From: a virus
Reading direction: 5' to 3' (one strand)
Virus record (IMG/VR): IMGVR_UViG_3300000366_000001
Location: 1-64,000 of that record
Length of the DNA stretch: 64,000 nt
In this document: positions 34,819-57,677 of the stretch, in pieces
Position numbering within the stretch: the first letter of the stretch is position 1
How the letters are laid out: the number at the start of each line of letters is the position of its first letter
Made by a program: the position numbers and the translations under genes
Notes under the pieces: generated by a model
Told to the model about the DNA's origin: nothing
Database searches by the model: none
The model's input: only the letters and a program-made list of their open reading frames with translations

Positions 34819-35568
34819 CTAACCGCCTAACTTTCCTTCCCCGTACCATGATGCGATAATCTCGTTAATCCTGTCCAATATATCCATTCTTTTAAACCAC
34901 AAATGACAATTGCCATTTTTAAACATCTTGATCTTTAAATATTCGTTTTCATATTCTTTGCTGTTTCTTGCCTGCCTTAACTCATAAGAAAAACCATGCT
35001 CTTTAAATTCTTTGCCGTCTAATGTTTTAATAATGCGGTCAAGGTCGTTTATTTCTCCTTCATTATAATGGTTAAGCATCAAGTCACCAAAGGAGCAAAC
35101 AAACCAATTAGTTAATATAATTTTCTTGCTTACTTTAAATGCGTCATTTGTTTTGTATTTTCCTTCTAATCTTTTAAACAGATTGACTAATCCTCGATTA
35201 AAAAAGTGTTCTGCATTGTGATAGCTGCTAATTAAAGTCTCCCTGATGTTATCCATTGTAAACTCAGGTGGATTCTTTTCAAGGCTCATATCAAAATCAT
35301 TACGGGCTACTTTATCCATGTATTTATTGAATCCGGTTTTATTGATTGCGTGTCTCCAGAACCGGCGGTCTAATTCTTTCCTGAATTCATCAGGACATTT
35401 CAAGGAGCTGTTAAAAGCAAGAGGGTATAAATAATTACCCATCTGATTACAAACATCCTGAGACTTTTGCATAGTCTTGTAGGCGTGTATATGCAAGTCT
35501 AAAGCTTTATCTCTTGCTTCTACTATGTCTTCAAGCGTCTTAATGTGTGCTAGTGCTGTGGATTGCAT
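34819..35568 (-). CDS. DUF4942-like protein (tentative)
   Basis: 249 aa. The C-terminal pattern KMFKNGNCHLWFKRMDILDRIN resembles the DUF4942 signature as I recall it. Confidence 0.5.
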   Translation of the reverse strand: MQSTALAHIKTLEDIVEARDKALDLHIHAYKTMQKSQDVCNQMGNYLYPLAFNSSLKCPDEFRKELDRRFWRHAINKTGFNKYMDKVARNDFDMSLEKNPPEFTMDNIRETLISSYHNAEHFFNRGLVNLFKRLEGKYKTNDAFKVSKKIILTNWFVCSFGDLMLNHYNEGEINDLDRIIKTLDGKEFKEHGFSYELRQARNSKEYENEYLKIKMFKNGNCHLWFKRMDILDRINEIIASWYGEGKLGG

Positions 35569-42445: not shown

Positions 42446-44134
42446 TTATTGGCAGGCCGAACACTCATCTTTCGATGCTTGCACATTAGCCTTGCTGTAA
42501 ATGTAATAAAGCCCCAGGATATTGGGATCAAGAAACGCTTTTTTATGCACTCCATTGATATATCCTTCATCTTCACCCGCTGAAAAAAACAGGTTCAGGC
42601 TTTGCCATTGGTCGATAAACTTGCCCCTTGTTGACGCTTCACGGATAATTGCATTCTGGTCAATCTCAAAGGCAGTACGCAAAGCGAGTTTTTCTTCATC
42701 AGTAAGGCAGTCCAGTCCCTGAACGCTACCCATAGCATCCCTGACTTGCTCTATATTCGCTTTTGTATAACAACCCTTATCTTTCAACAGTTTCAAAAGA
42801 ACAGGGCTTACACGGTCAACCTCACCGGCCGGTGTGCGTTGAGTATAAACAAAAGCAGTATCAGGGTTAATGCCTTCTGAAATACCACCCATAATCAAGG
42901 CCGTTGATTTTGTTGGCGCTACAGCAAGCCTATGCGTATTTGCCATGCCGTAACCCTTCATAAACTCAGGCTCACCGTACACTGAAGCAATCCATTGTGA
43001 CGCTTTACGGCTGTCTTTGTCCAGCTTGTCGAACAACTTGACGTTGAAGAAGTGTGCTTTCAAACTATCAAACGGGATCATGTTTTGCTGTAAATAGGTG
43101 TGATAACCACAAACACCCAAGCCAAGAGCGCGGCTTTTCTTAGTGAACCTTACAGCCTTTTCTAGCCCCTTGATATTCTTTGCACGTTCTAAAAACTCTT
43201 GCACCACGCAATCAAGGAAAACAGTGGCCTCAAATACAGAATCCGTGTCTTTCCATTCATCATACTTGGCAGCATTCATGCTTGAAAGGACACAAGTAAA
43301 CGTGTGATCCTTGTCAGAGAATAGGGCTATTTCACTGCATAATTGACTTGACTTGATAGTTAAGTCTTGATCTTTGTACCACTGTGGGCGCTTTGCATTA
43401 GCCTTATCAATAAACCAATAGTAGCCTTTTCCGGTTGGCATTTTAGTGGTCATGGCCTTAGCATAGCGCCGGATTGCTTCAGGGTCTTTATTTACCAAAG
43501 CATCGATAAAGGCATCTGGTATATTCCATCCGATATTGTTACCATCTGGATTGTGCTTCAGGTAGGTGCAAACCTCATCAAAATCACCATGATCTATAGG
43601 TAGGTATCCTGCCCATGATCCACGCCTTGCAGTGCCTTGCACCACATATTCCATATCTTTCTGGAAGCCTTCAATAATCGGCATCACGCCTGAAGCATGC
43701 CCACCAATAGAAATGCGCTCGCCTCTTGGACGAACATCACCCAAGTAGGACGCAGTACCAAACCCCATCTTGGTTAACATAGCTACTTCTTGTTTGCATT
43801 CATAAATATCATACAGGTCATCAGCCATGTAATTACCAGCGCAAGACACCGTTAATCCTCGATTAGTGCCAGTATTAGCAAGTACAGGCGTAGAAGGGCT
43901 TAACCAGCCCCTCCAAAGAAGTTTAAAGAACTTGGAGTACCATTCTTGAGGGTCTGGCGTATGCGCTGCTAGAGTCTTTGCAATACGCTCATATTGCTCT
44001 TTAGGCGTCTTGGCTTGATAGAGATATTTTTCTTTAAACATCTGCCAGCCAGCCGTACTGAACCATTCAGGCATAGTGCCTTCTGCCTGCATCTTCTTGC
44101 GTTCTTCTGATAGCTTGTTGTAAATGTTTGTCAT
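42446..44134 (-). CDS. nrdA: ribonucleotide reductase large subunit (class I, no long ATP-cone)
   Basis: 562 aa; C-terminal Cys pair ...DECSACQ; paired with an NrdB-like gene. Confidence 0.8.
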   Translation of the reverse strand: MTNIYNKLSEERKKMQAEGTMPEWFSTAGWQMFKEKYLYQAKTPKEQYERIAKTLAAHTPDPQEWYSKFFKLLWRGWLSPSTPVLANTGTNRGLTVSCAGNYMADDLYDIYECKQEVAMLTKMGFGTASYLGDVRPRGERISIGGHASGVMPIIEGFQKDMEYVVQGTARRGSWAGYLPIDHGDFDEVCTYLKHNPDGNNIGWNIPDAFIDALVNKDPEAIRRYAKAMTTKMPTGKGYYWFIDKANAKRPQWYKDQDLTIKSSQLCSEIALFSDKDHTFTCVLSSMNAAKYDEWKDTDSVFEATVFLDCVVQEFLERAKNIKGLEKAVRFTKKSRALGLGVCGYHTYLQQNMIPFDSLKAHFFNVKLFDKLDKDSRKASQWIASVYGEPEFMKGYGMANTHRLAVAPTKSTALIMGGISEGINPDTAFVYTQRTPAGEVDRVSPVLLKLLKDKGCYTKANIEQVRDAMGSVQGLDCLTDEEKLALRTAFEIDQNAIIREASTRGKFIDQWQSLNLFFSAGEDEGYINGVHKKAFLDPNILGLYYIYSKANVQASKDECSACQ

Positions 44135-44177
44135 TTGTTTTGTGTCCTGCTGTTAATGTTTTTGGCTTTAATAATAA

Positions 44178-45173
44178 TCAGAAAGTAAACGCAGACTCAG
44201 ACCACGCCCGTTCATACTGATTGCCTTGTGAACTAAAAAAGTCTTGCATTTGATATCCGTTAATGCCCTTGTAAAACCATTCTGCAATAGGATTGTACTC
44301 GACACTATACAGGTTTTCATACCCCATATTACGCAGACATACGTTAATTCTGGACTGGACAAAATGCTCTAGTTGATTAGCTGTGATTGATTCAATTCGA
44401 CCTTTTTCAAATATCTTTTTGATAATCTGTTGCTCGTGCTGATAAACAACTTCAGCAGCCGAATAAATGTCTTTCTTTAGCTTATCAAGGTATTGATCAT
44501 CAATCAATCCGGCTTCATACATTTCATGCTTTAGTTGCTTAAATAGCCAGCCAGCAGCTTCAGAGTGCAAAGCTTCGTCACGGGCAGAAAAGTTAATCCC
44601 TGATACTACGTTAAGAAGCTTATTTTTCCCCTGGCTCTGAAAGTGCTTTAGGAATGCAAAGGACGAATACAGAACAGCGCCTTCACCAAACGTAAATGCA
44701 CCCAAAGCCTTCAGGTCGTCATCAGAAGTAAGGACGTTATGCAGAAATGAAATTCGCTCTACTAAAACAGGGTCTTCTTTGTATTCGTCATAAAACTCAT
44801 CAGTTGCAAGCCCAAGTTCTTCATTTAGCTTTGCATAGAACTTGCCGTGAACCTGCAACTCAATAGCAGCAAACATAGCAGCCATAGGCTGAATGTCAGC
44901 CGGTCTAGGAAACTTCTTAAATACAAAGTTGAGCCAAAATTCATCGCCGATAATCTGCTCGTATTTAGTAAACAGCTTTAATACAGTAATAACACCATGA
45001 CGCTCTGATTCTGTCATGTTTACGAGAATATCTTGTTTGTCCTTTTGAACCTTTACCTCGTTATGAGGCCAGAATATATTAGCTTGTTTATCTGCAAAAT
45101 CTACAGCTTGCGGATAGTCCACTGTAAATGTTTCTTTAGGAGTTTTCATCCTAACTTGATTGCTTGAATCCAT
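44178..45173 (-). CDS. nrdB: ribonucleotide reductase small subunit
   Basis: 331 aa; ferritin-like Glu/His motifs (EALHSEA); C-terminal ...AWSESAFTF. Confidence 0.8.
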   Translation of the reverse strand: MDSSNQVRMKTPKETFTVDYPQAVDFADKQANIFWPHNEVKVQKDKQDILVNMTESERHGVITVLKLFTKYEQIIGDEFWLNFVFKKFPRPADIQPMAAMFAAIELQVHGKFYAKLNEELGLATDEFYDEYKEDPVLVERISFLHNVLTSDDDLKALGAFTFGEGAVLYSSFAFLKHFQSQGKNKLLNVVSGINFSARDEALHSEAAGWLFKQLKHEMYEAGLIDDQYLDKLKKDIYSAAEVVYQHEQQIIKKIFEKGRIESITANQLEHFVQSRINVCLRNMGYENLYSVEYNPIAEWFYKGINGYQMQDFFSSQGNQYERAWSESAFTF

Positions 45174-45196
45174 AATAAACCACCAATTACCAGAGA

Positions 45197-45220
45197 CAAA
45201 AAAAGCGCAGCTTGTGCGCT
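45197..45220 (-). terminator. rho-independent terminator
   Basis: Stem AGCGCA/TGCGCT followed by T7 on the minus strand. Confidence 0.65.
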
Positions 45221-45242
45221 TGCTATTTAATTCTTTTAATCT

Positions 45243-45467
45243 TTACTGCTCAAGACAATTCAAGTATTTCATAAGCAGTGTAAAATTTTCTTTTGTTGTT
45301 ACCACTTCTTGACTTTCATTATACCAAAATCTCAGGCCACTAGGTTCAGCGCAAACTTGATTACTTTGATCTTTTGCTGTCAGAAGACTGCATCCGGTCA
45401 TCAGGCTTATCACCAAAACGGTCATTAACCCACTTAACAGGATCTTCTTGTATTTCGTTTTGGTCAT
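45243..45467 (-). CDS. lipoprotein (o-spanin-like or surface-exclusion type)
   Basis: Internal ATG at 45467 gives MTKTKYKKILLSGLMTVLVISLMTGC with lipobox LMTGC; AAGGA upstream. Confidence 0.6.
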   Translation of the reverse strand: MTKTKYKKILLSGLMTVLVISLMTGCSLLTAKDQSNQVCAEPSGLRFWYNESQEVVTTKENFTLLMKYLNCLEQ

Positions 45468-45561
45468 TAGTGTACCGATCCTTTTTATCTTGTTTTTTCT
45501 TGAGATTGAACTTTTCAGCAATGAAAACAAGGATAAATAATATTTTGTCAAGTATTGTCAT
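45361..45561 (-). CDS. possible i-spanin-like protein overlapping the lipoprotein gene
   Basis: ATG at 45561 gives MTILDKILFILVFIAEKF..., followed by a charged tail. It overlaps the lipoprotein ORF by 107 nt in another frame. Confidence 0.35.
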   Translation of the reverse strand: MTILDKILFILVFIAEKFNLKKKQDKKDRYTNDQNEIQEDPVKWVNDRFGDKPDDRMQSSDSKRSK

Positions 45562-45616
45562 GTTTCGGCCTTGCTTGTAAAACAAATAGCATAAAAAGGC
45601 ATCCTTGCCCTGTTTT

Positions 45617-45817
45617 TTAATGCTCCTGCTTGTCTGTTTTGTTTGTTTCAACAATAACACGATCATTCGGGGTAAACTTACTAATTAAGTCGTAAATCTT
45701 ACCAAAGAAGTTGGCGTATTTTGGTGTTGGCAAAAATCTCGCAAGCATTGCCAGAGCACCAAAAACAGCCAGGGCTGCCTGCAATATTTCATCCCAATTA
45801 CTGACAATAAATTCCAT
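45617..45817 (-). CDS. small single-pass membrane protein (holin-like)
   Basis: 66 aa; TM segment ILQAALAVFGALAMLARFL. Confidence 0.45.
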   Translation of the reverse strand: MEFIVSNWDEILQAALAVFGALAMLARFLPTPKYANFFGKIYDLISKFTPNDRVIVETNKTDKQEH

Positions 45818-45866
45818 AATAAAACCTCATTTAAAAGTTAAACAAGGCTTTATTTTAACATGGATA

Positions 45867-46289
45867 TCAAAATTTACCAGTATGACCAAAACCGTTTTCG
45901 CCGCGTTCCGTTTCCTTGAATTCTTCCTTGATAAATGTAGCCTCTACCATTTCATGGAAAACAATTTGACCGATACGCTCACCGGCTTTAATTGTAACAG
46001 GTTCGTTTGACAGGTTCCAGAAATTCCAAATCATATTACCTGTGTAATCCTTGTCAATAATGCCAACACTGTTGAGTAGGATCAGTCCGTTTTTGTTACA
46101 CAATGAGCTTCTTGGCACCGCCGTATAAAAGTAATCCTGAATAGGCTGTAGCTTGGTAGGCGTTGTCACCTTGCCAACCTGATGAGGTTTGATAAATAAA
46201 TCTTCTTTAGAAACAACATCATAGCCAGCAGATTCCTCTGATCCCCTGGTAGGCTTTTCGCCATTGTACCTCACTACCACTTTTTTCAT
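45867..46289 (-). CDS. dut: dUTPase (trimeric type)
   Basis: Motifs AGYDV, GIIDKDYTG, RIGQIVF and ERGENGFGHTG. Confidence 0.85.
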   Translation of the reverse strand: MKKVVVRYNGEKPTRGSEESAGYDVVSKEDLFIKPHQVGKVTTPTKLQPIQDYFYTAVPRSSLCNKNGLILLNSVGIIDKDYTGNMIWNFWNLSNEPVTIKAGERIGQIVFHEMVEATFIKEEFKETERGENGFGHTGKF

Positions 46290-46513
46290 TTGATTATTTT
46301 CCTTTTGTTAAAGCCATTAAAAAACCTTCGCCATATATAACCCCTCGCCACTGATACCACCGTAAAAGTTAATGTAATAGCTATATTGTCATGTGCGCTT
46401 ACTTGGATCTCCCATAACGGGACTATAACATAAGACCAAAGCAATAGCGATACTAAAAACCCTGACCCTACGTTAAGAATCTGTTCAATTAGACTCTGTT
46501 TTCGGCTTTGCAT
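46286..46513 (-). CDS. small membrane protein
   Basis: 75 aa with two hydrophobic helices. Confidence 0.55.
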   Translation of the reverse strand: MQSRKQSLIEQILNVGSGFLVSLLLWSYVIVPLWEIQVSAHDNIAITLTFTVVSVARGYIWRRFFNGFNKRKIIK

Positions 46514-47286
46514 TGTTCTACCATTCTCTGACCAAAAAACACAACCTTTTCAGAGTCATAAAGTCCGTCTGTATATCCTTTTTTAGTGCCGCCTAGCCTG
46601 GCCGCACACTTCCGCCAGATTGCTTTAAATGCGTTACCCTCTGCATAATTCATATGCAAGGCTTCAATGATGTCATTACATTCAGCTTCGTAAGCTTCTG
46701 GTAATGTTGTCGGTTTGTTAATCTTTACCTTGTAGTAACTAACTGATCCGCCTGTGTATTCTTCTTCTGGATGATCCTTAAAATCAACATCAGCAGGATT
46801 ATACCAGGGCTTTTGCGGAATAGGGTATTTTTCGTCCGACTTAACACCATGTTCGACAGCATCAAGCCACTGATCTTCTTTATCCCAAAAATACTCCTTT
46901 CCATCTTCAATCTTAAGCCAATTACAGATAGTAAATTGACCACATTCAAAGTCAACATGAGTTGCGTCTTCAGGTGGCTCACCTGAATTATGGATCATAC
47001 CAGCAAAATGCTCTTGATATTTTTTATCAAGAGTAGTGAGTTTTGGCTGGTCTTTCATTGGGTGGCATTCGATTGAACTCTTGCCCTTTGATATAACGTA
47101 CCAAAACCCATGGCCTTGCGGGGTTTCTTCCCAGACAAAACATCCGTAAAGGTTAGTGTCATCATCAAGCGCGATCCCACTATCAATAACTCTCTGCAAT
47201 TCGTAAACCGCAGCATTATGGCCGATCACATTGGCAACCCGCTCAAAACAAGCTAGGTCGATAGGATGTAGCTCTTCTTTTTTCAT
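46489..47286 (-). CDS. hypothetical protein with DUF3310-like C-terminal domain
   Basis: ATG at 47286 after GGAGG. The C-terminal pattern is GGSVSYYKV...AEGNAFKAIWRKCAARLGG. Confidence 0.55.
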   Translation of the reverse strand: MKKEELHPIDLACFERVANVIGHNAAVYELQRVIDSGIALDDDTNLYGCFVWEETPQGHGFWYVISKGKSSIECHPMKDQPKLTTLDKKYQEHFAGMIHNSGEPPEDATHVDFECGQFTICNWLKIEDGKEYFWDKEDQWLDAVEHGVKSDEKYPIPQKPWYNPADVDFKDHPEEEYTGGSVSYYKVKINKPTTLPEAYEAECNDIIEALHMNYAEGNAFKAIWRKCAARLGGTKKGYTDGLYDSEKVVFFGQRMVEQCKAENRV

Positions 47287-47300
47287 CTGAAAACCTCCAG

Positions 47301-47570
47301 TCAATCATAAACTTTAATGTTTCTGCCAGACCTTACCGCATCCTGCTCTTTCTCATGCTCTGCCCTGCAACTCCAATCCTCCTCAGCTTCACAGTATGCC
47401 GATTCGTAATCTGGTAAAGCCTCACTGCAATATAGGCACTTGTTAACTATAGCGTGTTTCTGCATGGATTGCAAGCGTTCTTTCTCTCTTTCTTTTGCCA
47501 GGTTGAAAGAAAAAAGCGACCTTTCCAGATGCCGCTCATTTTCTTTTTGTGCAATATCTATTTCGTCCAT
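47301..47570 (-). CDS. TraR/DksA-family zinc-finger protein
   Basis: N-terminal DEIDIAQKENERHLE followed by a C4 cluster (CLYCSE...C..C). Confidence 0.65.
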   Translation of the reverse strand: MDEIDIAQKENERHLERSLFSFNLAKEREKERLQSMQKHAIVNKCLYCSEALPDYESAYCEAEEDWSCRAEHEKEQDAVRSGRNIKVYD

Positions 47571-47620
47571 TTTATTAAAGCCTTATTGTTAATTAAATAA
47601 GGCTATTTTAGCATGGCTGA

Positions 47621-47938
47621 TTAAAATAAATTTAATTGATTTTTGTTTTGGTGCATTGCTTCTATTTGATCAACCATACACTGGTTCCAATTACTAGACT
47701 CAAAGCCCAATGATTTTAGATTATGGTCGTTTTTAAGTATAGCCAAAGCTATCCTTTTATAAGTTGGAACCCTATTTGAGTTAACCAGTTGATCTGGAAC
47801 CTCCTCTCCATCAGGAATACCACTCGAATAACATTTGTCCATCCACATCTTTTCGTAAGCCTTTATTTTCGATGTAATGCTTCTCCCATAATCTAATTGC
47901 TGAATCTGCCTCTTTGTTTGCCAAAAATCGCTGCTCAT
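47621..47938 (-). CDS. small protein sharing the KR[IF]A..ILKNDH motif with the IbrA-like C-terminus
   Basis: Has VPTYKRIALAILKNDHNLKSLGF, compared with TSWKRFAVTILKNDHTCKYMGL in 49205..50527. It overlaps the upstream ORF by 128 nt; an alternative ATG lies at 47848. Confidence 0.5.
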   Translation of the reverse strand: MSSDFWQTKRQIQQLDYGRSITSKIKAYEKMWMDKCYSSGIPDGEEVPDQLVNSNRVPTYKRIALAILKNDHNLKSLGFESSNWNQCMVDQIEAMHQNKNQLNLF

Positions 47939-48242
47939 CTGTAAGATACCCCCACGCTTTTCTAGTAATATCTTGAGGGCAGCTTAAAGCCATTGCACAT
48001 GCTGCATGACCAATCCATGCCCTTCTATTTATATTTTCGTCTGTTAGTGCGTTCTCACAACTAAAGATCCACTCTTCAGTTACGCTTTTCATGTATTTTC
48101 CGTATAAATAATGATCTCCTGTGAACTCAATAGCTTTTTCAAGCATTTCCTTTTTATTATTGCAGGTAGACCACATCCCTTGGCCTACCTCCTCCCACTT
48201 CCAGAACGGATGAGCAATATGCTCAAATTTCCTCTTTACCAT
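47811..48242 (-). CDS. hypothetical protein
   Basis: 143 aa; ATG verified. It overlaps the ParB-like gene end by 20 nt. Confidence 0.55.
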   Translation of the reverse strand: MVKRKFEHIAHPFWKWEEVGQGMWSTCNNKKEMLEKAIEFTGDHYLYGKYMKSVTEEWIFSCENALTDENINRRAWIGHAACAMALSCPQDITRKAWGYLTDEQRFLANKEADSAIRLWEKHYIENKGLRKDVDGQMLFEWYS

Positions 48243-48798
48243 AAATATCTTCTTCTACAACCTCCCAGCTATCTGAAAAATCCTTGTTTTGAAATAAAGC
48301 TGCTACACCTGTAATCTGTTTTAACCTAAGAAGCTCATCCTTACTCATACCTATATGGTCACATATCCACCTGTCCCCCTTACCCATCTCAACAAGCTCT
48401 GCTACAATCGTGCTCATTAGCTCTATACTATGAGTGCCCCTAGCCCTGTTATGACGAATTGTTGAGGCCATCCTGTTATCCATAGTCTTGTTTAAGACTA
48501 CAATAGGAAGCATTCCTTGCTCCCTTTGATAAACCCTCTTACTTGTCTTCAGTGTTAAATAACGGTGAAAGCCATCAATGACAACATATTGATCTTTATC
48601 TTCATCATAAACAGTTACAACAGGTTGAGTATAACCATCCTCCCATATTGATGTCTCAAGCAGCTCCATTTCTGGCGGCGCAACGCTATTAGGATTATAG
48701 TCGTTAGCCGTAACTTTTTCCACTGGAACCCGTAGAACATTGTAAACAGGAGAAACAAAACCTGACTCAAAATCTTTATTATCGTGGTGGTTTTCCAT
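48223..48798 (-). CDS. ParB-like nuclease domain protein (IbrB-like)
   Basis: Has NPNSVAPPEMELLETSI...IDGFHRY...RHNRARGTH; ATG at 48798 after GAGG. Confidence 0.7.
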   Translation of the reverse strand: MENHHDNKDFESGFVSPVYNVLRVPVEKVTANDYNPNSVAPPEMELLETSIWEDGYTQPVVTVYDEDKDQYVVIDGFHRYLTLKTSKRVYQREQGMLPIVVLNKTMDNRMASTIRHNRARGTHSIELMSTIVAELVEMGKGDRWICDHIGMSKDELLRLKQITGVAALFQNKDFSDSWEVVEEDIYGKEEI

Positions 48799-48815
48799 GC
48801 AAAGCCTCATCTCAA

Positions 48816-49205
48816 TTATTTTACACAAAACACTTCGTAACTTCCATCCTCATCATGGACTTCATTTCCAGTCAGAGGCGGGTTAAAAACACAAAGCAAA
48901 ACAGTCTCATCAATTGCCTCAAAAAAGTGCGGGTCATTCTCATCTAAAATGTAAGTTGTATCTGGAGTAATAATAAACTCCTCTCCGGTTTTAGCGTTTG
49001 TAAGCACCGCTTTACCCTTTACACAGTAACAGCTTTCAAGATGATTCTTGTAGTGCTGAAAAACCCTTCCAGCATCTGGACTTATCACGGTTTTTGTGAA
49101 GGTGTAACCCATTTTATCTTCCAGCAAAATTATGCGGTTACTTACGCCAGCATGAAATTCAACTTTCCTGCTTTCTGGCAATTGATTGGTTTTGATTACT
49201 TTCAT
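48816..49205 (-). CDS. ectoine-synthase-like cupin (EctC family)
   Basis: HYKNHLESCYCVKGKAVL...PDTTYILDENDPHFF...LLCVFNPPLTGNEVHDEDGSY aligns by eye with Halomonas EctC (HYKHHFEAVYCIEGEGEV...PGDIYILDQHDEHLL...[21 protein letters not shown]). Confidence 0.7.
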   Translation of the reverse strand: MKVIKTNQLPESRKVEFHAGVSNRIILLEDKMGYTFTKTVISPDAGRVFQHYKNHLESCYCVKGKAVLTNAKTGEEFIITPDTTYILDENDPHFFEAIDETVLLCVFNPPLTGNEVHDEDGSYEVFCVK

Positions 49206-50527
49206 TATTTATCACCCTTCTTGTTTAGATTATTGTATTTTTTCTGTATCTGCTTCTGTCTTGCAGCCTGCTCTTTAGTTGGAGCAAGACCCATATACTT
49301 ACAAGTATGATCGTTCTTTAAAATTGTCACTGCAAACCTTTTCCAGCTAGTTACATCTGAATTGTTGCAAGACAGCATATCCAAGTGATCTGGTGGAGTT
49401 TTTATTTTAACTCTACGTAAATCTTTTCTACCGTGACTGGTATATCCGTTCACAGTGAATTTTACACCTGCACTGTTTAGTTCGTCAATAGTTTTTTCTG
49501 GCAATCCGCGCCCCACTCTACCCCAATATCTTATAGATTGAATGAAGCGCCCCTTAAAATTTTCTGCGGTTTCCTCCGGCAAGGTATCGAGCAAAAACTT
49601 AACAAAGCTTTTCCATGTATGACCTTTTGGAAGACTTATATTTCTGTAATTAAGCTGCTTACCATAGGTAACCATAAAATTAGCCCCGTTAACTCTAGCG
49701 CAAAGCCTTGCCCAAATATGAGGATCTATAACCCTATAAAGGTTTAGGCTGGCCTTTGCCTCACTCATAAATGGTGACGCTACCCGCATAGATCCAACTG
49801 GTACACCAGCCTTGTAAAAAACATCATACAGCTTGTTGTAGTCCCACTCAAACTTAGCATTAGCAGCCCATACATCATCAGTGCGCCAATCATAAATAGG
49901 GTAACAATTAAAAACATTTTTAGTGTTTTTCTTTGTCCAGGCGTAACCATCAAGCATCTCCTTTCTATCGTTCATAATGGCTCTAAATCGGTTGAGGCTT
50001 TCTTGCGTCCTAATGCCAATAAGGTTGGCTGTTTTTTTTCCTTCGGCATACCACTCTGCAAACATATCCCAAAAGTGATCGTACTGCATGTTTTCTACAA
50101 ATTTATCCCCGAAAGGATGATTTTCAAAATTTACAACATAGTCATCTTCCGGCATTGGCCTTATCCATCTATCTTTATCACCCTCTCCCCAGCACTGCCA
50201 ATCTTGATCGTAAGCAGAAACGGTGCATGGTAATGTTATTGGCATGCAGCACCAATATACATCAAGATAATCCGAGTTATCTTTCAATATTCTGTGCATA
50301 AATTCAAGGCTTAAGTCATAATTTGCCTCGTTATCCATTATCTGAATACCAAGCTTTTTCTTTACATTGTTCTTTTTCATATAGTCAAGGCAAAGATTAA
50401 GCATTATCCCAGAGTCCTTGCCGCCTGAAAAAGAAAGATAGACCTTTTCAAAGTTATTAAAAATGTAATCTATGCGCTCCATAGATGCATCATATACGTT
50501 TTTACCTCTGTTGTATTGCCTGCGCAT
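49205..50527 (-). CDS. PAPS-reductase-fold protein with DUF3440-like C-terminus (IbrA-like)
   Basis: N-terminal PP-loop context YLSFSGGKDSG; 440 aa; ATG at 50527 after AAGGAG; TAATG junction with the cupin gene. Confidence 0.75.
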   Translation of the reverse strand: MRRQYNRGKNVYDASMERIDYIFNNFEKVYLSFSGGKDSGIMLNLCLDYMKKNNVKKKLGIQIMDNEANYDLSLEFMHRILKDNSDYLDVYWCCMPITLPCTVSAYDQDWQCWGEGDKDRWIRPMPEDDYVVNFENHPFGDKFVENMQYDHFWDMFAEWYAEGKKTANLIGIRTQESLNRFRAIMNDRKEMLDGYAWTKKNTKNVFNCYPIYDWRTDDVWAANAKFEWDYNKLYDVFYKAGVPVGSMRVASPFMSEAKASLNLYRVIDPHIWARLCARVNGANFMVTYGKQLNYRNISLPKGHTWKSFVKFLLDTLPEETAENFKGRFIQSIRYWGRVGRGLPEKTIDELNSAGVKFTVNGYTSHGRKDLRRVKIKTPPDHLDMLSCNNSDVTSWKRFAVTILKNDHTCKYMGLAPTKEQAARQKQIQKKYNNLNKKGDK

Positions 50528-50582
50528 CAACTCAACTCCTTAGCCAATTCAATTAACCTGTTCATTTTACCCGATCCGATTC

Positions 50583-50616
50583 CAAAAAAAATACCCTCGT
50601 TAACTTCTGAGGGTAT
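50583..50616 (-). terminator. rho-independent terminator
   Basis: Stem ATACCCTC/GAGGGTAT followed by T8 on the minus strand. Confidence 0.7.
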
Positions 50617-50639
50617 TCTATTATCACTAATTCCAAAAG

Positions 50640-51800
50640 TCAACACATTTCCGGCGTAATCCGCAACCTTCCCACTTCACCGTATTCAGTATGGTAGGTA
50701 ATGACCTGTGCTGACCTTTGGCTAATCCAACCGCCATGCGCTGCATAAGCGTCTGTGGCGGCCAAAGTCTGGTGTTGCTCAACTATCATCAGATTGTTTT
50801 CTTTAACGTCTTTAGAGTGCCTATGACCTAGATGGGCATAGCTGTACTTTGTACGCCCGAACATATCCCTAAATTTAGCTGCAAAAACATCAGCCACACT
50901 TCCAACGCCTTTACGGTGTCCATGATGAAAGAATAGGCTGTTATTACCAAACTCATAAGCGTAATAAACGTCAGGGCTTGTTTCAACTGTTACCCTGTCG
51001 TTTAAGCTGTAGAAGTGCGAAAACAGCTCTCTAAGCCACGCAGATGAAGCCATATCATGGTTTCCCTGGGCATGAACGATATGCACGTATTCGTGCTTTT
51101 CTAGCAGCATATCAACGACTTTAGTGAGCACCTTGATAGCTACCCTGACTACGTTTTGAAATCGCGTATCTGCATCAAGAATATGCTTGTGTTGTGGTGT
51201 TACCGCTTCTAATCCATCATAATGAAGCAAGTCTGCAATATTTGCCAAGATAGCCGTTTCTGAGTCGGGCGATTGCTTAATAGCTTGTTTAAACCAGTTG
51301 ACAAGTAAGGATTCAGCTTTCTCAATATCCCAATCCTCATTACCTGTTTCTTCACCCCATGCGTACATGCCAAGGTGGTAATCTGTAATTACATAAAGAT
51401 TCAGTAAGTCTTGATTGCTTGATTCCTTTGATTGGACTGGATAGCTTGCTTTCGGCTCTACCGACTCTTTCAGGGCTTCTATAGCGGCTTCCATAACCTT
51501 AAACTGGTCTTCTGCTTTCTTGTCAGTCTTAACCCATTGCAGTCTTGGCTTTCCCAAGTCATCATAAAGTGTGCTTGTTCCTTTTACAAAATGGGTATCA
51601 GGAGCTACCTTAGTCATACCCTTGTCAGGTGCATAACCTTGCAGGGCAGCCCTATCCTTTACGCGGTTAACCTGACGCTTCAGTGTTGTTCTATCCTTAC
51701 CTAAAAGCCTTGCAGCGGCATTAAGCGTACCTTTTTCAAGGTAGGCTTTAACTGATTCCGTCTCATGGTCTGTCCTGCAAAACTCAATTAATTTATCCAT
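50640..51800 (-). CDS. HTH domain fused to a calcineurin-like metallophosphoesterase
   Basis: N-terminal LNAAARLLGKDRTTLKRQVNR. Phosphoesterase motifs DYHLG, GNHD and GHRH. Confidence 0.65.
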   Translation of the reverse strand: MDKLIEFCRTDHETESVKAYLEKGTLNAAARLLGKDRTTLKRQVNRVKDRAALQGYAPDKGMTKVAPDTHFVKGTSTLYDDLGKPRLQWVKTDKKAEDQFKVMEAAIEALKESVEPKASYPVQSKESSNQDLLNLYVITDYHLGMYAWGEETGNEDWDIEKAESLLVNWFKQAIKQSPDSETAILANIADLLHYDGLEAVTPQHKHILDADTRFQNVVRVAIKVLTKVVDMLLEKHEYVHIVHAQGNHDMASSAWLRELFSHFYSLNDRVTVETSPDVYYAYEFGNNSLFFHHGHRKGVGSVADVFAAKFRDMFGRTKYSYAHLGHRHSKDVKENNLMIVEQHQTLAATDAYAAHGGWISQRSAQVITYHTEYGEVGRLRITPEMC

Positions 51801-51978
51801 TCTCTTTAACCTTTTGCTCTAAATAAAGAATATACTCTAGCATCTTTTCATGGTGACTGGATAATCTAAAGCATTCTGAATCTCTGTTTTTTCTGTAATC
51901 TTCTAGCAATTTACTATCAAGTCTTTCACCCTGGCAAAATCCTTTTCGCCATTCGTTTCTTTGATTAACTAGGTTCAT
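51793..51978 (-). CDS. hypothetical protein
   Basis: 61 aa; overlaps both neighbours by a few nt. Confidence 0.5.
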   Translation of the reverse strand: MNLVNQRNEWRKGFCQGERLDSKLLEDYRKNRDSECFRLSSHHEKMLEYILYLEQKVKENG

Positions 51979-52433
51979 TTTTCCAGATTATCTTCAACCA
52001 TTTTCATGGCAAAGGTATCAAATACTTTAACTTCGCCACCTGTGCATGAATCTCGTGTCATAGCGTACTCTACAGCCTCCTTTGCATTCATTCCAAAGTC
52101 AATAGCTGCCATAGCAAAGGGCGCTCCTGATCCAATCGAATAGCTGTTTAAATGATCTATGCTGTTTTTGTAAACCCCGCCTTCTTCACTCTGAGAAAGA
52201 ATGAATACACCTTCACTCTCTGCAATGATGATATTTGCCTCTAATAGATATTCGTGCATAGCTTGGTCTGAAATTGAAATAAGTTTATCAATATCGCAAG
52301 GGATGCCAGCACCAAAATAGTAGGCGTTATTGGAAACAACAAATTTATCCACATTTTCAGAAAGGATGATATTTCCGCTTGATTCTCTTGAGTCACAAGC
52401 AATATAGCGGCCATCAAATGCGATTGTAGTCAT
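51975..52433 (-). CDS. proteasome-type Ntn hydrolase (HslV-like)
   Basis: MTTIAFDGRYIACDSRESSGNII... parallels the HslV N-terminus (TTIVSVRRNGHVVIAGDGQ), with Thr directly after Met. Confidence 0.65.
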   Translation of the reverse strand: MTTIAFDGRYIACDSRESSGNIILSENVDKFVVSNNAYYFGAGIPCDIDKLISISDQAMHEYLLEANIIIAESEGVFILSQSEEGGVYKNSIDHLNSYSIGSGAPFAMAAIDFGMNAKEAVEYAMTRDSCTGGEVKVFDTFAMKMVEDNLEK

Positions 52434-52447
52434 TTAGTTATTCCTGG

Positions 52448-52975
52448 TTATTGGTAGGTCAGTGCGTAAGTCAATCTAGGTTCAGCTATACCAGTACCAT
52501 AGCATATATTTTTACCTTTGAAAACCCGTGTACCGTAACTTCCAACCTCAAAACCATTAATCTCTAGATCTAATCCTGACTCGGTTTTTACGGTTGTCAG
52601 CTTTTCTGTAAACTGTCTAAAGAATCCTTCTGCATCTTTTTTTACAGACTTATATTCATATGAACCGATTACAAACAATTCTATCTTCAAGAATATTCTG
52701 AAATGATACTCATCTAAAACAGGTTCATCACGATAGCACGGGGTTATCGCTTGATACCTGCCATCGCCAATATCATTATTAATGATACGCTGAAAAAATG
52801 ACTGCTCAGCACTAGCCACATAACAGAGACCATTATGTTTCAAATCTTCCCTTGATTCAGGTTTAGTAAAGTCGCTTACCATTTCATCCACAAGCATAGG
52901 CACTGATACAGGCTCGTAGCCAAGTAACTGATACCATTGCATGGCATTAAGAATTTTTAAAGAGTCAACTATCAT
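52448..52975 (-). CDS. minimal class-II aminoacyl-tRNA-synthetase-like catalytic core
   Basis: 175 aa. Motif-2-like CYRDEPVLDEYHFRIFLKIELF (compare SerRS CFRSEAGS...HQFDKVEMV). Motif-3-like GTGIAEPRLTYAL. Confidence 0.55.
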   Translation of the reverse strand: MIVDSLKILNAMQWYQLLGYEPVSVPMLVDEMVSDFTKPESREDLKHNGLCYVASAEQSFFQRIINNDIGDGRYQAITPCYRDEPVLDEYHFRIFLKIELFVIGSYEYKSVKKDAEGFFRQFTEKLTTVKTESGLDLEINGFEVGSYGTRVFKGKNICYGTGIAEPRLTYALTYQ

Positions 52976-53223
52976 TTTCTATACCCCGATTTAAATGCTA
53001 GTTTTGTAGCATCTGACATCGCTTTAAGGTCATTCATTTTCATCCCGAACTTAAATTCAATATACCCCTCTATTGCCCCATACATATCTGACAGCTCTAC
53101 CAACTCCATAATAAGGTTGCCTTGCTCTTGAGACTCTAAAACCTCATCAGCCTCTTCCATTACTTTGGAGAAATGACCGTAGACACCTTTTTTAATAACT
53201 CTATTATGATAACTCATAAACAT
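52972..53223 (-). CDS. MazG-like NTP pyrophosphohydrolase
   Basis: 83 aa; has EEADEVLE...ELVELSD acidic helices. Confidence 0.55.
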   Translation of the reverse strand: MFMSYHNRVIKKGVYGHFSKVMEEADEVLESQEQGNLIMELVELSDMYGAIEGYIEFKFGMKMNDLKAMSDATKLAFKSGYRK

Positions 53224-53256
53224 TCCTTAATTCAATTATGATTCAAGCATTTTTGT

Positions 53257-53826
53257 TTATGACAAAAATACTTGCTGCTTGATTACAATAATATTAACAA
53301 TAGCTGAAACATATTTAGCCTGATGGATTGCATCGTCTAGGGCATAATGCGGAACACCTGAAAACGGCATTTCTTTTTTAGCGTTATACCCAATCATTTC
53401 ACCTAGCTCAACAACAGTCCTGACATCCCTTTCATTCCAGAACTTCCAAGGGTTATTGAGTCCTACTTTATCAAAGGAGTTTTTAAGGATGCCTAAGTCA
53501 AAGGTAGCACCGTTGCCCCAAGGCTTAGCCTGCTTTGAGTTATCGTAAACAAAAGAGCGTAAGGACTCCAAAACCTCTTTCAAGTCTCTTGCCTTTTTGT
53601 TGTCTTTAAACTTATTTCTAGCATCATCTGACTGCTTTAACCACCATAAAATGGTATCCGCATCTGCATGGATGCCGTATTTAGATGATGATTCTAGGCT
53701 AATTTGCTCATAAAACTTTGCACCTGTCTCACCTGTTTTAGGCTCAAAAAAGCAAGCCCCGATAGCAATAATCGGTGAGTTGTTGGTGTTCCCCATTGTT
53801 TCTAAGTCAATCATTAGATTTTGCAT
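53257..53826 (-). CDS. DEDDh 3'-5' exonuclease
   Basis: ExoI motif MIDLETMG and ExoIII motif HYALDDAIH. Confidence 0.75.
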   Translation of the reverse strand: MQNLMIDLETMGNTNNSPIIAIGACFFEPKTGETGAKFYEQISLESSSKYGIHADADTILWWLKQSDDARNKFKDNKKARDLKEVLESLRSFVYDNSKQAKPWGNGATFDLGILKNSFDKVGLNNPWKFWNERDVRTVVELGEMIGYNAKKEMPFSGVPHYALDDAIHQAKYVSAIVNIIVIKQQVFLS

Positions 53827-53846
53827 GGTTTTTCCTTTCTATATAG

Positions 53847-53870
53847 CAAAAGGCCCCTTTTTACAGGGGC
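53847..53870 (-). terminator. probable terminator
   Basis: Stem GCCCC/GGGGC followed by a T-run on the minus strand. Confidence 0.5.
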
Positions 53871-53887
53871 ATAACTTATTCTTACCA

Positions 53888-54976
53888 CTACAACCGCATA
53901 GGCATGACAACCATCTCTGTATCGCCGTCCTTAATAAGCATTGGAGCCGCTGGGTCGTCTTTCATCCAAACAACAACCTCATCAGATTCCACTTTATTGA
54001 CTGCATCAGTCAGGTATTGAGCATTAACACCGATTTCAATTTCATGGTCAGACACGCAGTTAACGTACTCGTTACCCTGTGAATTATTACCACCTGATAC
54101 AGTGATACTGCACTCAGAATCTTTTACCAGTAAACGCAAAGGCGTAGTCTTACCGTTACCGAAAACAGAGGCGCGTGATACAGCGTCTTTAATTTCCTTG
54201 CCAATAAATGTAAAATCCAAGTCATTACCTTTTGGAATTACACGCTCATAATCAGGGTATCGGCCTTCAATAAGCTGCGTCTGAAACTCAACTTGCTCAT
54301 CCGAGAATCGAACAAAGTTATGGGCAACCTGCATAACCACTTCTTTATCTTCAACGCATCGGATGAAACCAGCAATAGAGTCGTTAGGAATAATAAGAAT
54401 ACGATCTTTTTCCAATTCGCTATTGCAGGAAACTTCGATTTTTATTAAGCGGTGACCATCTGTAGCAACGACATGCATCCGGTCTTCTTTAACGTCCAAA
54501 GCCACCCCGTTCAGGTAATGGCGAACATCGTTCTGACCTGCCATTGCGCTGGCTTTTTTTATGGACTCTAGAACTGATTTACCTTCAAAGGTGATCTTTC
54601 TATCATCTTCTAGGTCGTTAGGTAGAGGGTAGTCGTTAGGATTCAGAACAGACAGCTTACCTTTTGATCGGGCGCAACTGACTTTGGCGTGATCTTCTTC
54701 AAAGTTAATCTTGATGGTCTGATCGTCTTTGTATTTAGCAGTCAGCTTATGCAACTTTTCAAATTCTACAGTTGCTAAAATGTCGCCAGAGTTTGGTGCT
54801 TCGATTGTATAGCTAATCACTTGCACAAGATCATTAGCAGTGAATTTAACCTTACCGCTGTCAACAGATTGAACCAGGGCATGTTTCAAAATCTCCTGGG
54901 TTGACTTGCTCTTTACGGCTGTCTGGATATGCTCAAGAGCCGTTTTAAAATCCTTCACATTTGCTGATAGATTCAT
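53888..54976 (-). CDS. dnaN: DNA polymerase III beta-type sliding clamp
   Basis: 362 aa; N-terminus FKTALEHIQTAVKSKSTQEILKHALV resembles DnaN; length fits a three-domain clamp. Confidence 0.75.
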   Translation of the reverse strand: MNLSANVKDFKTALEHIQTAVKSKSTQEILKHALVQSVDSGKVKFTANDLVQVISYTIEAPNSGDILATVEFEKLHKLTAKYKDDQTIKINFEEDHAKVSCARSKGKLSVLNPNDYPLPNDLEDDRKITFEGKSVLESIKKASAMAGQNDVRHYLNGVALDVKEDRMHVVATDGHRLIKIEVSCNSELEKDRILIIPNDSIAGFIRCVEDKEVVMQVAHNFVRFSDEQVEFQTQLIEGRYPDYERVIPKGNDLDFTFIGKEIKDAVSRASVFGNGKTTPLRLLVKDSECSITVSGGNNSQGNEYVNCVSDHEIEIGVNAQYLTDAVNKVESDEVVVWMKDDPAAPMLIKDGDTEMVVMPMRL

Positions 54977-56717: not shown

Positions 56718-57677
56718 TTAATATTTATATTCCCAGCAAGCGTTATCAGGGATAAGTTGTCGGTGCTGAATCCATCCTTTAAAGTTGCCTGACCATAAGT
56801 GACCATTTTTATCCAAATGAGTAACGCCTTCTTGCTCAAGCAATTTCAGCAATCCTTCATCGTTGTTAATATCGGCATGATCCATAGGCTTAGCCTGATG
56901 TTCTACTGGCGAAGCGTGTTTTGGCTCATCTTCAATGAGCTGATTATACAAAACCTTATCAGTGTCATACAGCGCTGCTTTTTTGTCGTGATTGTCGTAG
57001 CTGCTACGCGCACAACGAGCCGCTGAACACTGTAAAGCCTGTTCAACAGTAAGCTCTGATCCATCGTTATCAAAGTATTTTAAAGCCCCATCAACACGTT
57101 CACGTTTAACGTATGGAACATGCCATTCACCTGAATGCAATTCACTTGGCAATGAATTAAGATGAGCAGAATACATGCATTTAGCAAGCTCATAAATATC
57201 CTTTTGAGCGTCTTTGTGAATCCTCAGATTGTAGAAGTTGTCGCCTTCTGTAAAGGTGATTGTTTCCCTGACAAACTGCCAAGGATTAAGCAGTCTGTTA
57301 GCCCATTCTTTATGTGCCCCTGCCTTTTCAGCTAGGTAATGAGTAAAGCAGGCCGGATACCTTGCAACCTTCCATAACCAGCGACCAAACCCTTTCCATT
57401 TCATTTCATTGTCTGCAACCATGCCTTTCTGTTTACTTCCAAACCAAACAGGGATATAAGGATCTGACAAGACTTCTGACCTGATTTTATTCATAGGAAT
57501 TGCTCGATTGCTTTTCACACCTCGACTAAATAGCCTGTGACGTAATGCTTCAGCGTGAACAACAAGCCCATACTTTACATTGAATGTAATAATCCTGCTA
57601 TCTGGATTATTTTTATTAACTGAATACTGAACAACTTCAGCTTCAATTCCATTCTTTCCTTGCGATTTTACACCCAT
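56718..57677 (-). CDS. thyX: FAD-dependent thymidylate synthase ThyX-like (long form)
   Basis: Exact ThyX signature RHR-x2-S-x4-S-x-R in EALRHRLFSRGVKSNRA; 319 aa. Confidence 0.75.
   Translation of the reverse strand: MGVKSQGKNGIEAEVVQYSVNKNNPDSRIITFNVKYGLVVHAEALRHRLFSRGVKSNRAIPMNKIRSEVLSDPYIPVWFGSKQKGMVADNEMKWKGFGRWLWKVARYPACFTHYLAEKAGAHKEWANRLLNPWQFVRETITFTEGDNFYNLRIHKDAQKDIYELAKCMYSAHLNSLPSELHSGEWHVPYVKRERVDGALKYFDNDGSELTVEQALQCSAARCARSSYDNHDKKAALYDTDKVLYNQLIEDEPKHASPVEHQAKPMDHADINNDEGLLKLLEQEGVTHLDKNGHLWSGNFKGWIQHRQLIPDNACWEYKY

Follow-up and report, generated by a model that had tools for sequence, protein, structure and literature searches.

An ectoine synthase-like iron cupin encoded in a conserved phage cassette with an IbrA/IbrB-type gene pair

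We report that a 64,000-nucleotide (nt) stretch of viral DNA (IMG/VR record IMGVR_UViG_3300000366_000001, positions 1 to 64,000; hereafter the window) encodes a 129-aa protein related to ectoine synthase, EctC, in the company of genes that have no part in ectoine biosynthesis as it is known. The gene is the second of a five-gene cassette, in which it lies between the genes of an IbrA-like PP-loop enzyme and of an IbrB-like ParB/Srx-fold protein, and genes for EctA and EctB are absent. On balance we lean towards the interpretation that the EctC-like protein assists a phage IbrA/IbrB-type module as an accessory subunit with a catalytic role and does not serve to make ectoine.

The open reading frame (ORF) occupies positions 48816..49205 on the minus strand, opens with ATG and closes with TAA. 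Its product matches the Pfam profile Ectoine_synth (PF06339) with an E value of 6.4e-38 (130.3 bits, cut-off 27), residues 1-124 aligning to profile positions 1-124 of 127, which amounts to a full-length family match; the score against the NCBIfam ectoine synthase model PRK13290 is barely over threshold (129.4 bits vs a cut-off of 128). The solved EctC structures of Paenibacillus lautus (5ONM, 5ONN and 5ONO) and Sphingopyxis alaskensis (5BXX) were matched with E values from 4e-23 to 7e-22, at about 40% identity. Membership of the EctC family can be regarded as practically certain and, given the 4e-23 match to solved EctCs, the predicted fold as safe. A first-pass annotation of this DNA, made by eye, had already taken the protein for an EctC homologue along most of its length. 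The strings that it quoted from the phage protein are found in the translation of the ORF and the homology is borne out by the searches above, in which the P. lautus and Sphingopyxis structure alignments took the place of its Halomonas strings. It had named the lack of an EctC signature or of the metal-binding residues as grounds for abandoning the idea, and both signature and residues are present. PHROGs offered no family for the protein and PADLOC returned nothing for it; the Pfam scan gave no match of the cupin to TET/JBP-type families, which argues that it is not an Fe(II)/2-oxoglutarate dioxygenase.

Positions defined in the P. lautus structure (PMC6344544), whose numbering is used here unless otherwise stated, were mapped on an alignment of 88 viral-clade sequences and 64 EctCs encoded in ectoine gene clusters (cluster-encoded EctCs). 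The iron ligands Glu57, Tyr84 and His92 are present in 100% of both groups; in the window protein they are Glu57, Tyr85 and His93, which are invariant across the clade (88/88), and their retention in the alignment to the EctC family had been set beforehand as a check. Ser23, Arg25, Thr40, Tyr52, His55 and Cys61 (Ser22, Arg24, Thr39, Tyr52, His55 and Cys61 in the window protein, all invariant in the clade) are likewise found in 100% of both groups. Position 106 is Phe in 81 and Trp in 7 viral sequences and Phe in the 64 cluster-encoded ones, and the C-terminal lid motif, which includes Glu115 and His117, does not vary among the 88 divergent viral sequences. Trp21, present in 64/64 cluster-encoded EctCs, occurs in 0/88 viral proteins (gap in 47, Phe in 40, Met in 1); the site is Gly20 or a gap in the window protein, which is devoid of Trp altogether. 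Val59, again present in 64/64 cluster-encoded EctCs, is Cys in 88/88 viral ones. Position 38 is mostly Thr in the viral clade (Thr 73, His 10, Asn 3, Cys 2), as in the window protein, and mostly His in the cluster-encoded group (His 57, Asn 6, Ser 1).

Of the substrate-binding set defined for EctC, namely Trp21, Arg25, Asn38, Thr40, Tyr52 and Glu57 (PMC6344544), the Arg, Thr, Tyr and Glu are thus kept, Trp21 is absent and position 38 is Thr. Replacement of the Trp in P. lautus EctC (W21A) leaves 9.7% of the activity, and the authors of that study assigned the flip of this residue a driving role in ring closure (PMC6344544). Position 59 lies two residues past an iron ligand on the same strand and, because side chains alternate along a beta-strand, should point into the barrel. 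Judged from the alignment, the metal centre and the contacts to an alpha-amino-acid head group are kept, with a lid-like aromatic residue lost and a thiol gained. This pattern is compatible with an enzyme that is still active but takes a different substrate, probably a larger or tethered one; the protein is probably metal-loaded and catalytically competent, and we consider it fairly likely that its physiological substrate is other than N-gamma-acetyl-diaminobutyrate (N-gamma-ADABA). The first-pass annotation had suggested as much. The loss of Trp21, the gain of Cys59 and the locked IbrA/IbrB-type partners described below speak for that suggestion, and the retention of Ser23, Arg25, Thr40 and Tyr52 speaks against it. 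In a neighbour-joining tree of 145 distinct EctC sequences, the cassette-linked proteins stand apart from all others with a bootstrap value of 95/100; mean identity is 58% inside this viral clade and 41% to cluster-encoded EctCs.

The company of ectA and ectB that marks a bona fide ectoine synthase was found neither within the window nor at any of 82 viral loci (EctA/EctB in 0/82). Queries were drawn from a verified ectABC locus of Pseudogracilibacillus auburnensis (L131), in which genes for a GNAT protein and a class-III aminotransferase (Pfam GNAT and Aminotran_3) lie directly upstream of ectC. A tblastn search of the 64-kb window with this EctA and EctB returned nothing even at E<=10, and profile hidden Markov models built from 58 EctA and 62 EctB sequences, run against 567 six-frame segments of the window, gave best E values of 0.41 (EctA) and 1.4 (EctB). 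EctB adjoins ectC in 64/80 bacterial and archaeal loci. No aminotransferase, as a source of a diamino acid, was seen in the window or in the loci. The earlier observation that the 64 kb carry neither EctA nor EctB therefore holds; the accompanying description of the gene as solitary is right as to these partners and otherwise misleading: the five-gene cassette is its obligate setting, and it is often fused to the ParB gene.

This obligate character emerged from scans in both directions. A scan of IMG/VR with the clade alignment yielded 229 viral stretches, of which the best 80 loci were analysed; 78/80 have an IbrA-like gene (64-76% identity) directly upstream and a ParB gene (59-83% identity) directly downstream of the EctC-like gene. 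The two exceptions lie at or near contig ends: one (L012) is cut on the 5' side, and the other (L045) has no match to IbrA in the 6 kb upstream of the gene and could be a true exception. In a reverse scan anchored on the IbrA-like protein (at least 67% identity), 68/69 further loci carry EctC. The same gene order is found in about 150 viral contigs and in the cultured phages XCL1123, Gaia and Nebkiss, whose hosts are a gammaproteobacterium and an actinobacterium. A 79.6-kb contig from ENA, with gene calls of independent origin, likewise shows DUF3440, Ectoine_synth and ParB_N proteins in this order close to a beta clamp, which is also their position in the window; the EctC protein of that contig recurs on a 2.4-kb Tara Oceans scaffold (L314). 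That the EctC-like protein functions together with IbrA and IbrB is, in our judgement, very likely.

Among 50,697 GenBank phage records searched by tblastn with the EctC-like protein, five gave a match in all (XCL1123, Gaia twice, Nebkiss and MT835761). Pseudoalteromonas phage XCL1123 carries PAPS reductase, EctC and ParB as three separate genes. A single 299-aa protein, gp104, unites EctC and ParB in the Mycobacterium phages Gaia and Nebkiss; it adjoins the "PAPS reductase" gp103 and, in Gaia, has borne the GenBank label "ectoine synthase/ParB multidomain protein" since 2014. The remaining record, MT835761 (L312, "UNVERIFIED: Bacteriophage sp.", human faeces), was rejected as a further phage case, being a high-GC bacterial ectB-ectC fragment with the Trp; the EctC end of MT835761.1 looks actinobacterial, and the record is probably misassigned or contaminated there. 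A nucleotide search with positions 44000-54000 of the window gave zero matches among GenBank phages, from which we take it that the phage has no close relative among those in culture. In a scan of bacterial and archaeal genomes, with one genome per species and 80 loci, the best five loci (47-63% identity) are contigs of metagenome-assembled genomes (MAGs) that hold the whole cassette, four of them about 5 kb long, whereas the other 75 (<=51% identity) lack it and comprise 64 loci with EctB beside ectC and 11 orphans. One locus from a MAG of the candidate phyla radiation (CPR; L092) was considered as a cassette and rejected as a bona fide-like orphan in a bacterial context. The cassette-bearing MAG contigs are assigned to Gallionella, Flavobacterium, Sediminibacterium and Pelobium, Gaia came from soil in Pittsburgh, and the cassette is not tied to salty habitats.

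EctC and ParB share one reading frame in 50 of 104 distinct loci, one such protein (P0075) carrying PF06339 and PF02195, and the window and XCL1123 represent the split form. The first-pass annotation had overlooked the downstream ParB-fold gene, its fusion to EctC in many relatives and the two further small genes of the cassette. Two single cases show another protein in the place of EctC: a 1-Cys peroxiredoxin (AhpC-TSA, E 2.6e-24) at 3868-4617 of L187 (IMGVR_UViG_3300049489_000692) and a GNAT acetyltransferase (E 2.6e-11) at 5301-5795 of L298 (IMGVR_UViG_3300010261_000001). Because of these replacements, the gap between IbrA and IbrB appears to behave as a slot for accessory enzymes.

The first gene of the cassette, at 49205..50530 on the minus strand, encodes the 441-aa IbrA-like enzyme, with Pfam matches to DUF3440 (E 1.6e-61) and PAPS_reduct (E 3.5e-9) and to PHROG 2302 (E 1.7e-112). 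Its stop codon (49207-49205) overlaps the ATG of the EctC-like gene (49205-49203) in a TAATG junction read from the sequence at 49203..49207 (minus strand), which couples the two genes translationally. The junction and the PP-loop nature of the upstream product had both been recognized in the first-pass annotation, and the PAPS_reduct and DUF3440 domains and an intact SGGKDSG motif agree with the latter. The SGGKDSG PP-loop is invariant, and 171/441 residues are at least 97% conserved among 79 cassette sequences; identity among the mycobacteriophage, Pseudoalteromonas phage and window proteins is about 68-70%. In an AlphaFold2 model (predicted local distance difference test score, pLDDT, 71), the N-terminal ~235 aa match PAPS/APS reductases, CysD, the PAPS domain of FAD synthase, TilS, TtuA, NcsA and LarE (Foldseek E values 4e-5 to 1e-3), and NAD synthetase is also among the fold matches. 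The N-terminal domain accordingly shows the hallmark of PP-loop ATP pyrophosphatases, an SGGxDS motif within an adenine-nucleotide alpha-hydrolase fold. Cys94, Cys102, Cys113 and Cys277 are invariant in the EctC-linked IbrA clade alone; IbrA relatives without EctC have Val/Ile, Thr, Pro and Ile/Val, respectively, at these positions. Together with the family-wide Cys95, the clade cysteines make up a CC-x6-C-x10-C pattern, which may mark a metal or Fe-S site peculiar to this clade, and they co-occur with the new Cys59 of EctC.

The IbrB-like ParB/Srx-fold protein is encoded at 48223..48828 on the minus strand, from an ORF that opens at TTG 48828 but more likely starts at ATG 48810 or 48798. It matches PHROG 2159 (E 8e-78) and Pfam ParB_N (E 1.1e-4; 22.6 bits, under the cut-off of 26.3). 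With a PAPS_reduct and DUF3440 protein adjoining a ParB_N protein on the same strand, the cassette has the make-up of an IbrA/IbrB-type module. The ParB box I (..PR) and box II (GERRxR) are replaced by YNPNS and DGFHRY, and the motif RMASTIRHNRARG is invariant. Since YNPNS and DGFHRY stand at the nucleotide-binding motifs, the protein is not a standard CTPase clamp; to the eye it seems nearer in style to DndB, DpdB and Srx. Sequence searches of the PDB gave weak matches to Noc, ParB and SbnI for this protein and nothing significant for IbrA or for o143, the product of the fourth cassette gene.

IbrA-like proteins form a large family, with more than 7,500 matching protein clusters at E<=1e-10. 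An IbrA relative is encoded in 224 GenBank phage records, most of which hold IbrA/IbrB pairs without EctC. In these ordinary pairs, of which Streptococcus thermophilus and Lactobacillus phages offer examples, the two genes are directly adjacent, with no EctC, o143 or o105 (the fifth cassette product). A gene for an SNF2 helicase lies upstream of the EctC-less pair of Streptococcus phage CHPC877, and a gene of similar size upstream of the pair in a Lactobacillus phage. The motifs FSGGKDSG, Cys95, RVASPF and a C-terminal NDHxCK are common to the IbrA family, and the ParB partner encoded in the window shares 57-59% identity with its counterparts in the Streptococcus and Lactobacillus phages. A series of loci (L250-L291, many with IMG ids 33000290xx) encode IbrA relatives 60-61% identical to the Streptococcus phage IbrA with no detectable IbrB/ParB nearby, so that IbrA can apparently stand alone; in one of them (L257) the gene lies beside tyrosine-recombinase-like genes.

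What we infer about the catalysis, the nature of the substrate and a nucleic-acid target of the module can be laid out as a scheme. The PP-loop enzyme would adenylate a carbonyl or carboxyl group with ATP and couple to it an amine-bearing, amino-acid-like group or possibly sulfur; TilS, QueC, GMP synthase and the thiouridylases all adenylate and then couple a nucleophile. In the EctC-like domain Fe would act as a Lewis acid, and an amine would attack an amide carbonyl intramolecularly with loss of water to give a cyclic amidine; alternatively, the step could be the reverse hydrolysis of a cyclic amidine. Given the retained head-group residues, the missing closing Trp and the additional Cys expected to line the barrel, the substrate would probably be amino-acid-like but bulkier or tethered. 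The ParB-fold partner, fused in about half of the cases, would deliver or activate the enzyme on its target, or regulate it, the likeliest target being phage DNA or a nucleotide; DpdB plays such a part for DpdA, as does a ParB-like activator for the phage Fe/2-oxoglutarate thymine dioxygenases. That the target is indeed DNA or a nucleotide is a tentative proposal, to which we give somewhat less than even weight. Hints of a DNA context come from the replication genes around the cassette, the SNF2 helicase near ordinary pairs of Streptococcus phages, the weak similarity of IbrA to DndC and the ParB dependence of the 5mYOX enzymes (PMC13229309). Carried to its end, the scheme would make the cassette an undescribed phage pathway to a hypermodified base or nucleotide with an amino-acid-derived cyclic amidine (an "ectoine-like" ring), the PP-loop enzyme attaching the group, EctC closing the ring and the fused ParB-fold domain delivering it to DNA. 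This extension is speculative and we hold it to be doubtful; were it true, both the IbrA/IbrB family, which is widespread, and the orphan EctC-type proteins would gain a first biochemical function.

Several observations weigh against a catalytic accessory role in an IbrA/IbrB-type module. Most IbrA/IbrB pairs do without EctC, which must therefore be seen as an add-on whose step may be peripheral, and about half of the cassettes are unfused. The retained Ser23, Arg25, Thr40, Tyr52 and Phe106 would suit a free amino-acid-like small molecule equally as well as a tethered one. We know of no established biochemistry for the IbrA/IbrB family; neither the DUF3440 half of the IbrA model nor o143 (Foldseek against the PDB, none below E 1) has a structural match that would provide a lead, and among the ~40 window ORFs scanned there is no DNA-modification gene of a known pathway, whether Dnd, Dpd or other. 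Finally, an orphan EctC of Pseudomonas syringae makes ectoine in a heterologous host (PMC5924519), so that residual ectoine synthase activity of the phage protein is possible.

The last point leads to the view that the gene is an auxiliary metabolic gene (AMG) for osmoprotection, the phage EctC cyclising host-made N-gamma-acetyl-diaminobutyrate and thereby raising ectoine during infection. The same interpretation, as an AMG for hyperosmotic resistance, was published in 2025 for EctC in two CPR phages, where the gene was said to be previously known only from prokaryotic genomes (PMC12647753). It would agree with the strong family match, the full set of Fe ligands and most substrate and product ligands, as well as with the many relatives from marine metagenomes. 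A host-copied AMG would not, however, be expected to show the lock to IbrA-like and ParB-like genes (78/80 and 68/69 loci) or the fusion to ParB in 50/104, and the viral clade is monophyletic, at ~41% mean identity to cluster-encoded EctCs, lacks the activity-relevant Trp21 in 88/88, has no EctA or EctB at its 82 loci and extends to soil mycobacteriophages and freshwater lineages. All this makes osmoprotection highly improbable as the role of the cassette. A further alternative is a pathway to a free small molecule: IbrA would replace EctA by acylating or amidating a diamino acid at the expense of ATP, the ParB/Srx protein would be a kinase or NTPase and EctC would close the ring of an ectoine-like cyclic amidine acting as a signal, protectant or anti-defence compound. 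SbnI and SerK are ParB/Srx-fold proteins that act as small-molecule kinase or NTPase, and the ParB-fold partner is weakly similar to the serine kinase SbnI; PP-loop enzymes often form amides or amidines by adenylation, as the TilS and NAD synthetase fold matches recall; the amino-acid head-group ligands of EctC are kept; and a GNAT acetyltransferase occupies the EctC slot of L298. Yet such a pathway would want a diamino acid source, and no aminotransferase was seen in the window or loci; the genomic setting is one of DNA replication or an SNF2 helicase, EctC is missing from most IbrA/IbrB pairs, and those ParB-fold partners of phage enzymes that have been studied work on DNA (PMC13229309). We therefore regard a free product as unlikely.

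It could also be that the cupin has no catalytic role but binds a small molecule or metal and so controls IbrB and IbrA as regulators of phage or prophage expression. Cupins fused to DNA-binding domains are often sensor domains, the fusion places EctC at the N-terminus of the ParB-fold protein, and the slot tolerates swaps (the GNAT and peroxiredoxin variants). Binding, though, does not usually need constraint as tight as that seen here, where the EctC catalytic residues except Trp21 (Glu57, Tyr85, His93, Tyr52, Glu115 and His117) are invariant in 88 sequences, and the partners, too, are enzymes whose catalytic motifs are intact (SGGKDSG). It is this complete conservation of the catalytic set that favours turnover over sensing, and we rate a purely ligand-sensing cupin as quite unlikely, retaining the catalytic accessory subunit as our preferred interpretation.

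The five cassette genes are co-directional and overlap or abut. The fourth encodes o143 (143 aa; 47811..48242, minus strand), which is conserved in 84 cassette loci and has 555 homologues, none (0) with a Pfam domain; its AlphaFold2 model (pLDDT 89) is all-helical with a disordered tail. The fifth product, o105 (105 aa; 47621..47938, minus strand; present in 81 loci), matches positions 145-177 of the DUF3440 profile (E 3e-7) and copies the C-terminal motif of IbrA (KRIALAILKNDH..LGF), with Leu in place of IbrA's invariant Cys410. The o143 and o105 genes overlap in the window by 128 nt, o105 being in the +1 frame, and in 20/25 loci, including the finished genomes of Gaia and XCL1123, by 92-128 nt in the +1 frame (coordinates 47621-48242, minus strand, in the window; 7254-7836 in L002; 8909-9518 in L001). 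In L086 (3853-4503), o143 and o105 make up a single in-frame protein of 217 aa. Conservation of o143 stops (Trp119) about where that of o105 starts (Gly18). The overlap could be a case of overprinted disordered tails or of a programmed +1 frameshift fusion. Upstream of the cassette, a 109-nt gap holds a promoter-like site, TTGACT-17-TAGAAT (50615..50643, minus strand), identified by consensus match alone; the region holds no more promoter-like sites than expected from shuffled sequence.

The cassette lies amid phage genes for replication and nucleotide metabolism, its neighbourhood encoding SbcD-like and DnaQ-like exonucleases, a beta clamp, PhoH, a ThyX-like protein, ribonucleotide reductase and dUTPase. 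The ThyX-like protein (319 aa; 56718-57677, minus strand) has the ThyX family as its only match, a weak one (Pfam Thy1, E 2.7e-7; PHROG 85 "thymidylate synthase", E 1.9e-75). A 249-aa DUF4942 protein is encoded at 34819-35568 (minus strand), with a weaker PHROG match annotated as DNA methyltransferase; both proteins could bear on whether the phage modifies its own DNA. A little upstream of the cassette, also on the minus strand, are genes for a fragment-sized, class II aminoacyl-tRNA-synthetase-like protein of 175 aa (52448-52975; PHROG 4806 "histidyl tRNA synthetase", E 2.6e-49; Pfam tRNA-synt_2, E 2.5e-5) and for an HslV-like peptidase (51975-52433; PHROG 1040, E 7e-31).

The bare existence of an EctC domain in phages is not new, as the GenBank label on Gaia gp104 attests. 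What is new is the monophyletic viral EctC clade, its five-gene cassette, the fusion rate of about 50%, the diagnostic residues and the co-varying cysteines of IbrA. Our literature search found no paper that joins ectoine synthase with ParB or PAPS reductase and none that analyses the phage EctC-ParB protein; DUF3440 is mentioned only in passing, and EctC is not among the fusions in a recent survey of ParB-fold proteins. Ectoine producers are recognized by EctC as their diagnostic enzyme. If our interpretation is correct, the main viral EctC clade, with several hundred metagenomic sequences and three cultured phages, represents something other than an osmoprotection AMG, and automated calls of "L-ectoine synthase" and of "cysH/PAPS reductase AMG" are likely to mislead when made on phage contigs. 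PAPS_reduct genes of viruses, a DUF3440-bearing clade among them, are routinely counted as "cysH" sulfur-assimilation AMGs (bioRxiv 10.1101/2021.01.05.425418, PMC10434257); for IbrA-type proteins this label would seem to be mistaken, in view of their intact PP-loop of the ATP type, their ParB partner and their setting in a cassette. The EctC-bearing variant would also narrow the chemistry of IbrA/IbrB to an amine and an amide or carbonyl. The fixed partners, Rosetta-stone fusion and active-site changes of this clade make the function of orphan EctCs accessible to experiment; Gaia and Nebkiss grow on Mycobacterium smegmatis, for which phage recombineering is routine, and XCL1123 has been cultured.

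Compared with known systems, the protein resembles EctC (PF06339) in family, in fold as judged by sequence, in size, in the Fe ligands and in Ser23, Arg25, Thr40, Tyr52, His55, Cys61, Phe106 and the lid motif. It differs in that the phage clade lacks ectA, ectB and Trp21, has Cys59 and mostly Thr38, is flanked by IbrA-like and ParB-like genes and is frequently fused to ParB. Closer in situation are the orphan (solitary) EctC-type proteins of bacteria described by Kurz 2010 and Czech 2018/2019 (PMC5924519, PMC6344544), which likewise lie away from an ect cluster and are diverged, with conserved metal and most substrate ligands. The orphans of the literature, however, are said to keep the Trp, sometimes shifted by two residues (PMC5924519, PMC6344544); of the 11 bacterial orphans that we sampled, nine have it, none (0) has IbrA or ParB neighbours, and all fall outside the phage clade in the tree. 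Viruses and ParB or PP-loop partners are not mentioned in the ectoine literature. The most basal "group 1" of EctC-like proteins is confined to strains of Mycobacterium abscessus, where it occurs beside a normal EctC (PMC5924519, section 6.3); given the fusion in Gaia and Nebkiss, these may be prophage copies of the cassette. The 90% protein cluster of Gaia gp104 has only Gaia and Nebkiss as members, and the patterns of the genome scan did not cover Gaia-type sequences.

The flanking genes of the cassette form an IbrA/IbrB pair with the common motifs, to which the EctC-linked form adds four invariant cysteines in IbrA and the EctC, o143 and o105 genes that ordinary pairs lack. A ParB-fold protein paired with a nucleic-acid-modifying enzyme is also the plan of DpdB/DpdA (7-deazaguanine) and DndB/DndC (phosphorothioation) (PMC12839542), and DndC, like IbrA, is a PP-loop ATPase that resembles PAPS reductases and carries the SGGKDS motif. 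The Dnd and Dpd systems, though, make no use of a cupin; IbrA scored 20.9 bits against the DndC model TIGR03183 (cut-off 290) and gave only local matches to DndC in PADLOC, and no Dnd partners were seen among the ~40 window ORFs scanned. The precedent from experiment that comes nearest is 5mYOX, a subclass of phage Fe/2-oxoglutarate-dependent thymine dioxygenases that needs a neighbouring ParB-like activator on double-stranded DNA (O'Toole et al. 2026, PMC13229309). Those enzymes oxidise thymine with Fe(II) and 2-oxoglutarate, whereas EctC is a non-oxidative, Fe-dependent cyclodehydratase of another cupin family; no PP-loop enzyme is involved there, and the DNA target, demonstrated for 5mYOX, is one that we infer for the cassette. 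The two systems nonetheless have a plan in common, in which an iron enzyme of the jelly-roll/cupin type adjoins a dedicated ParB-fold partner devoid of canonical ParB features.

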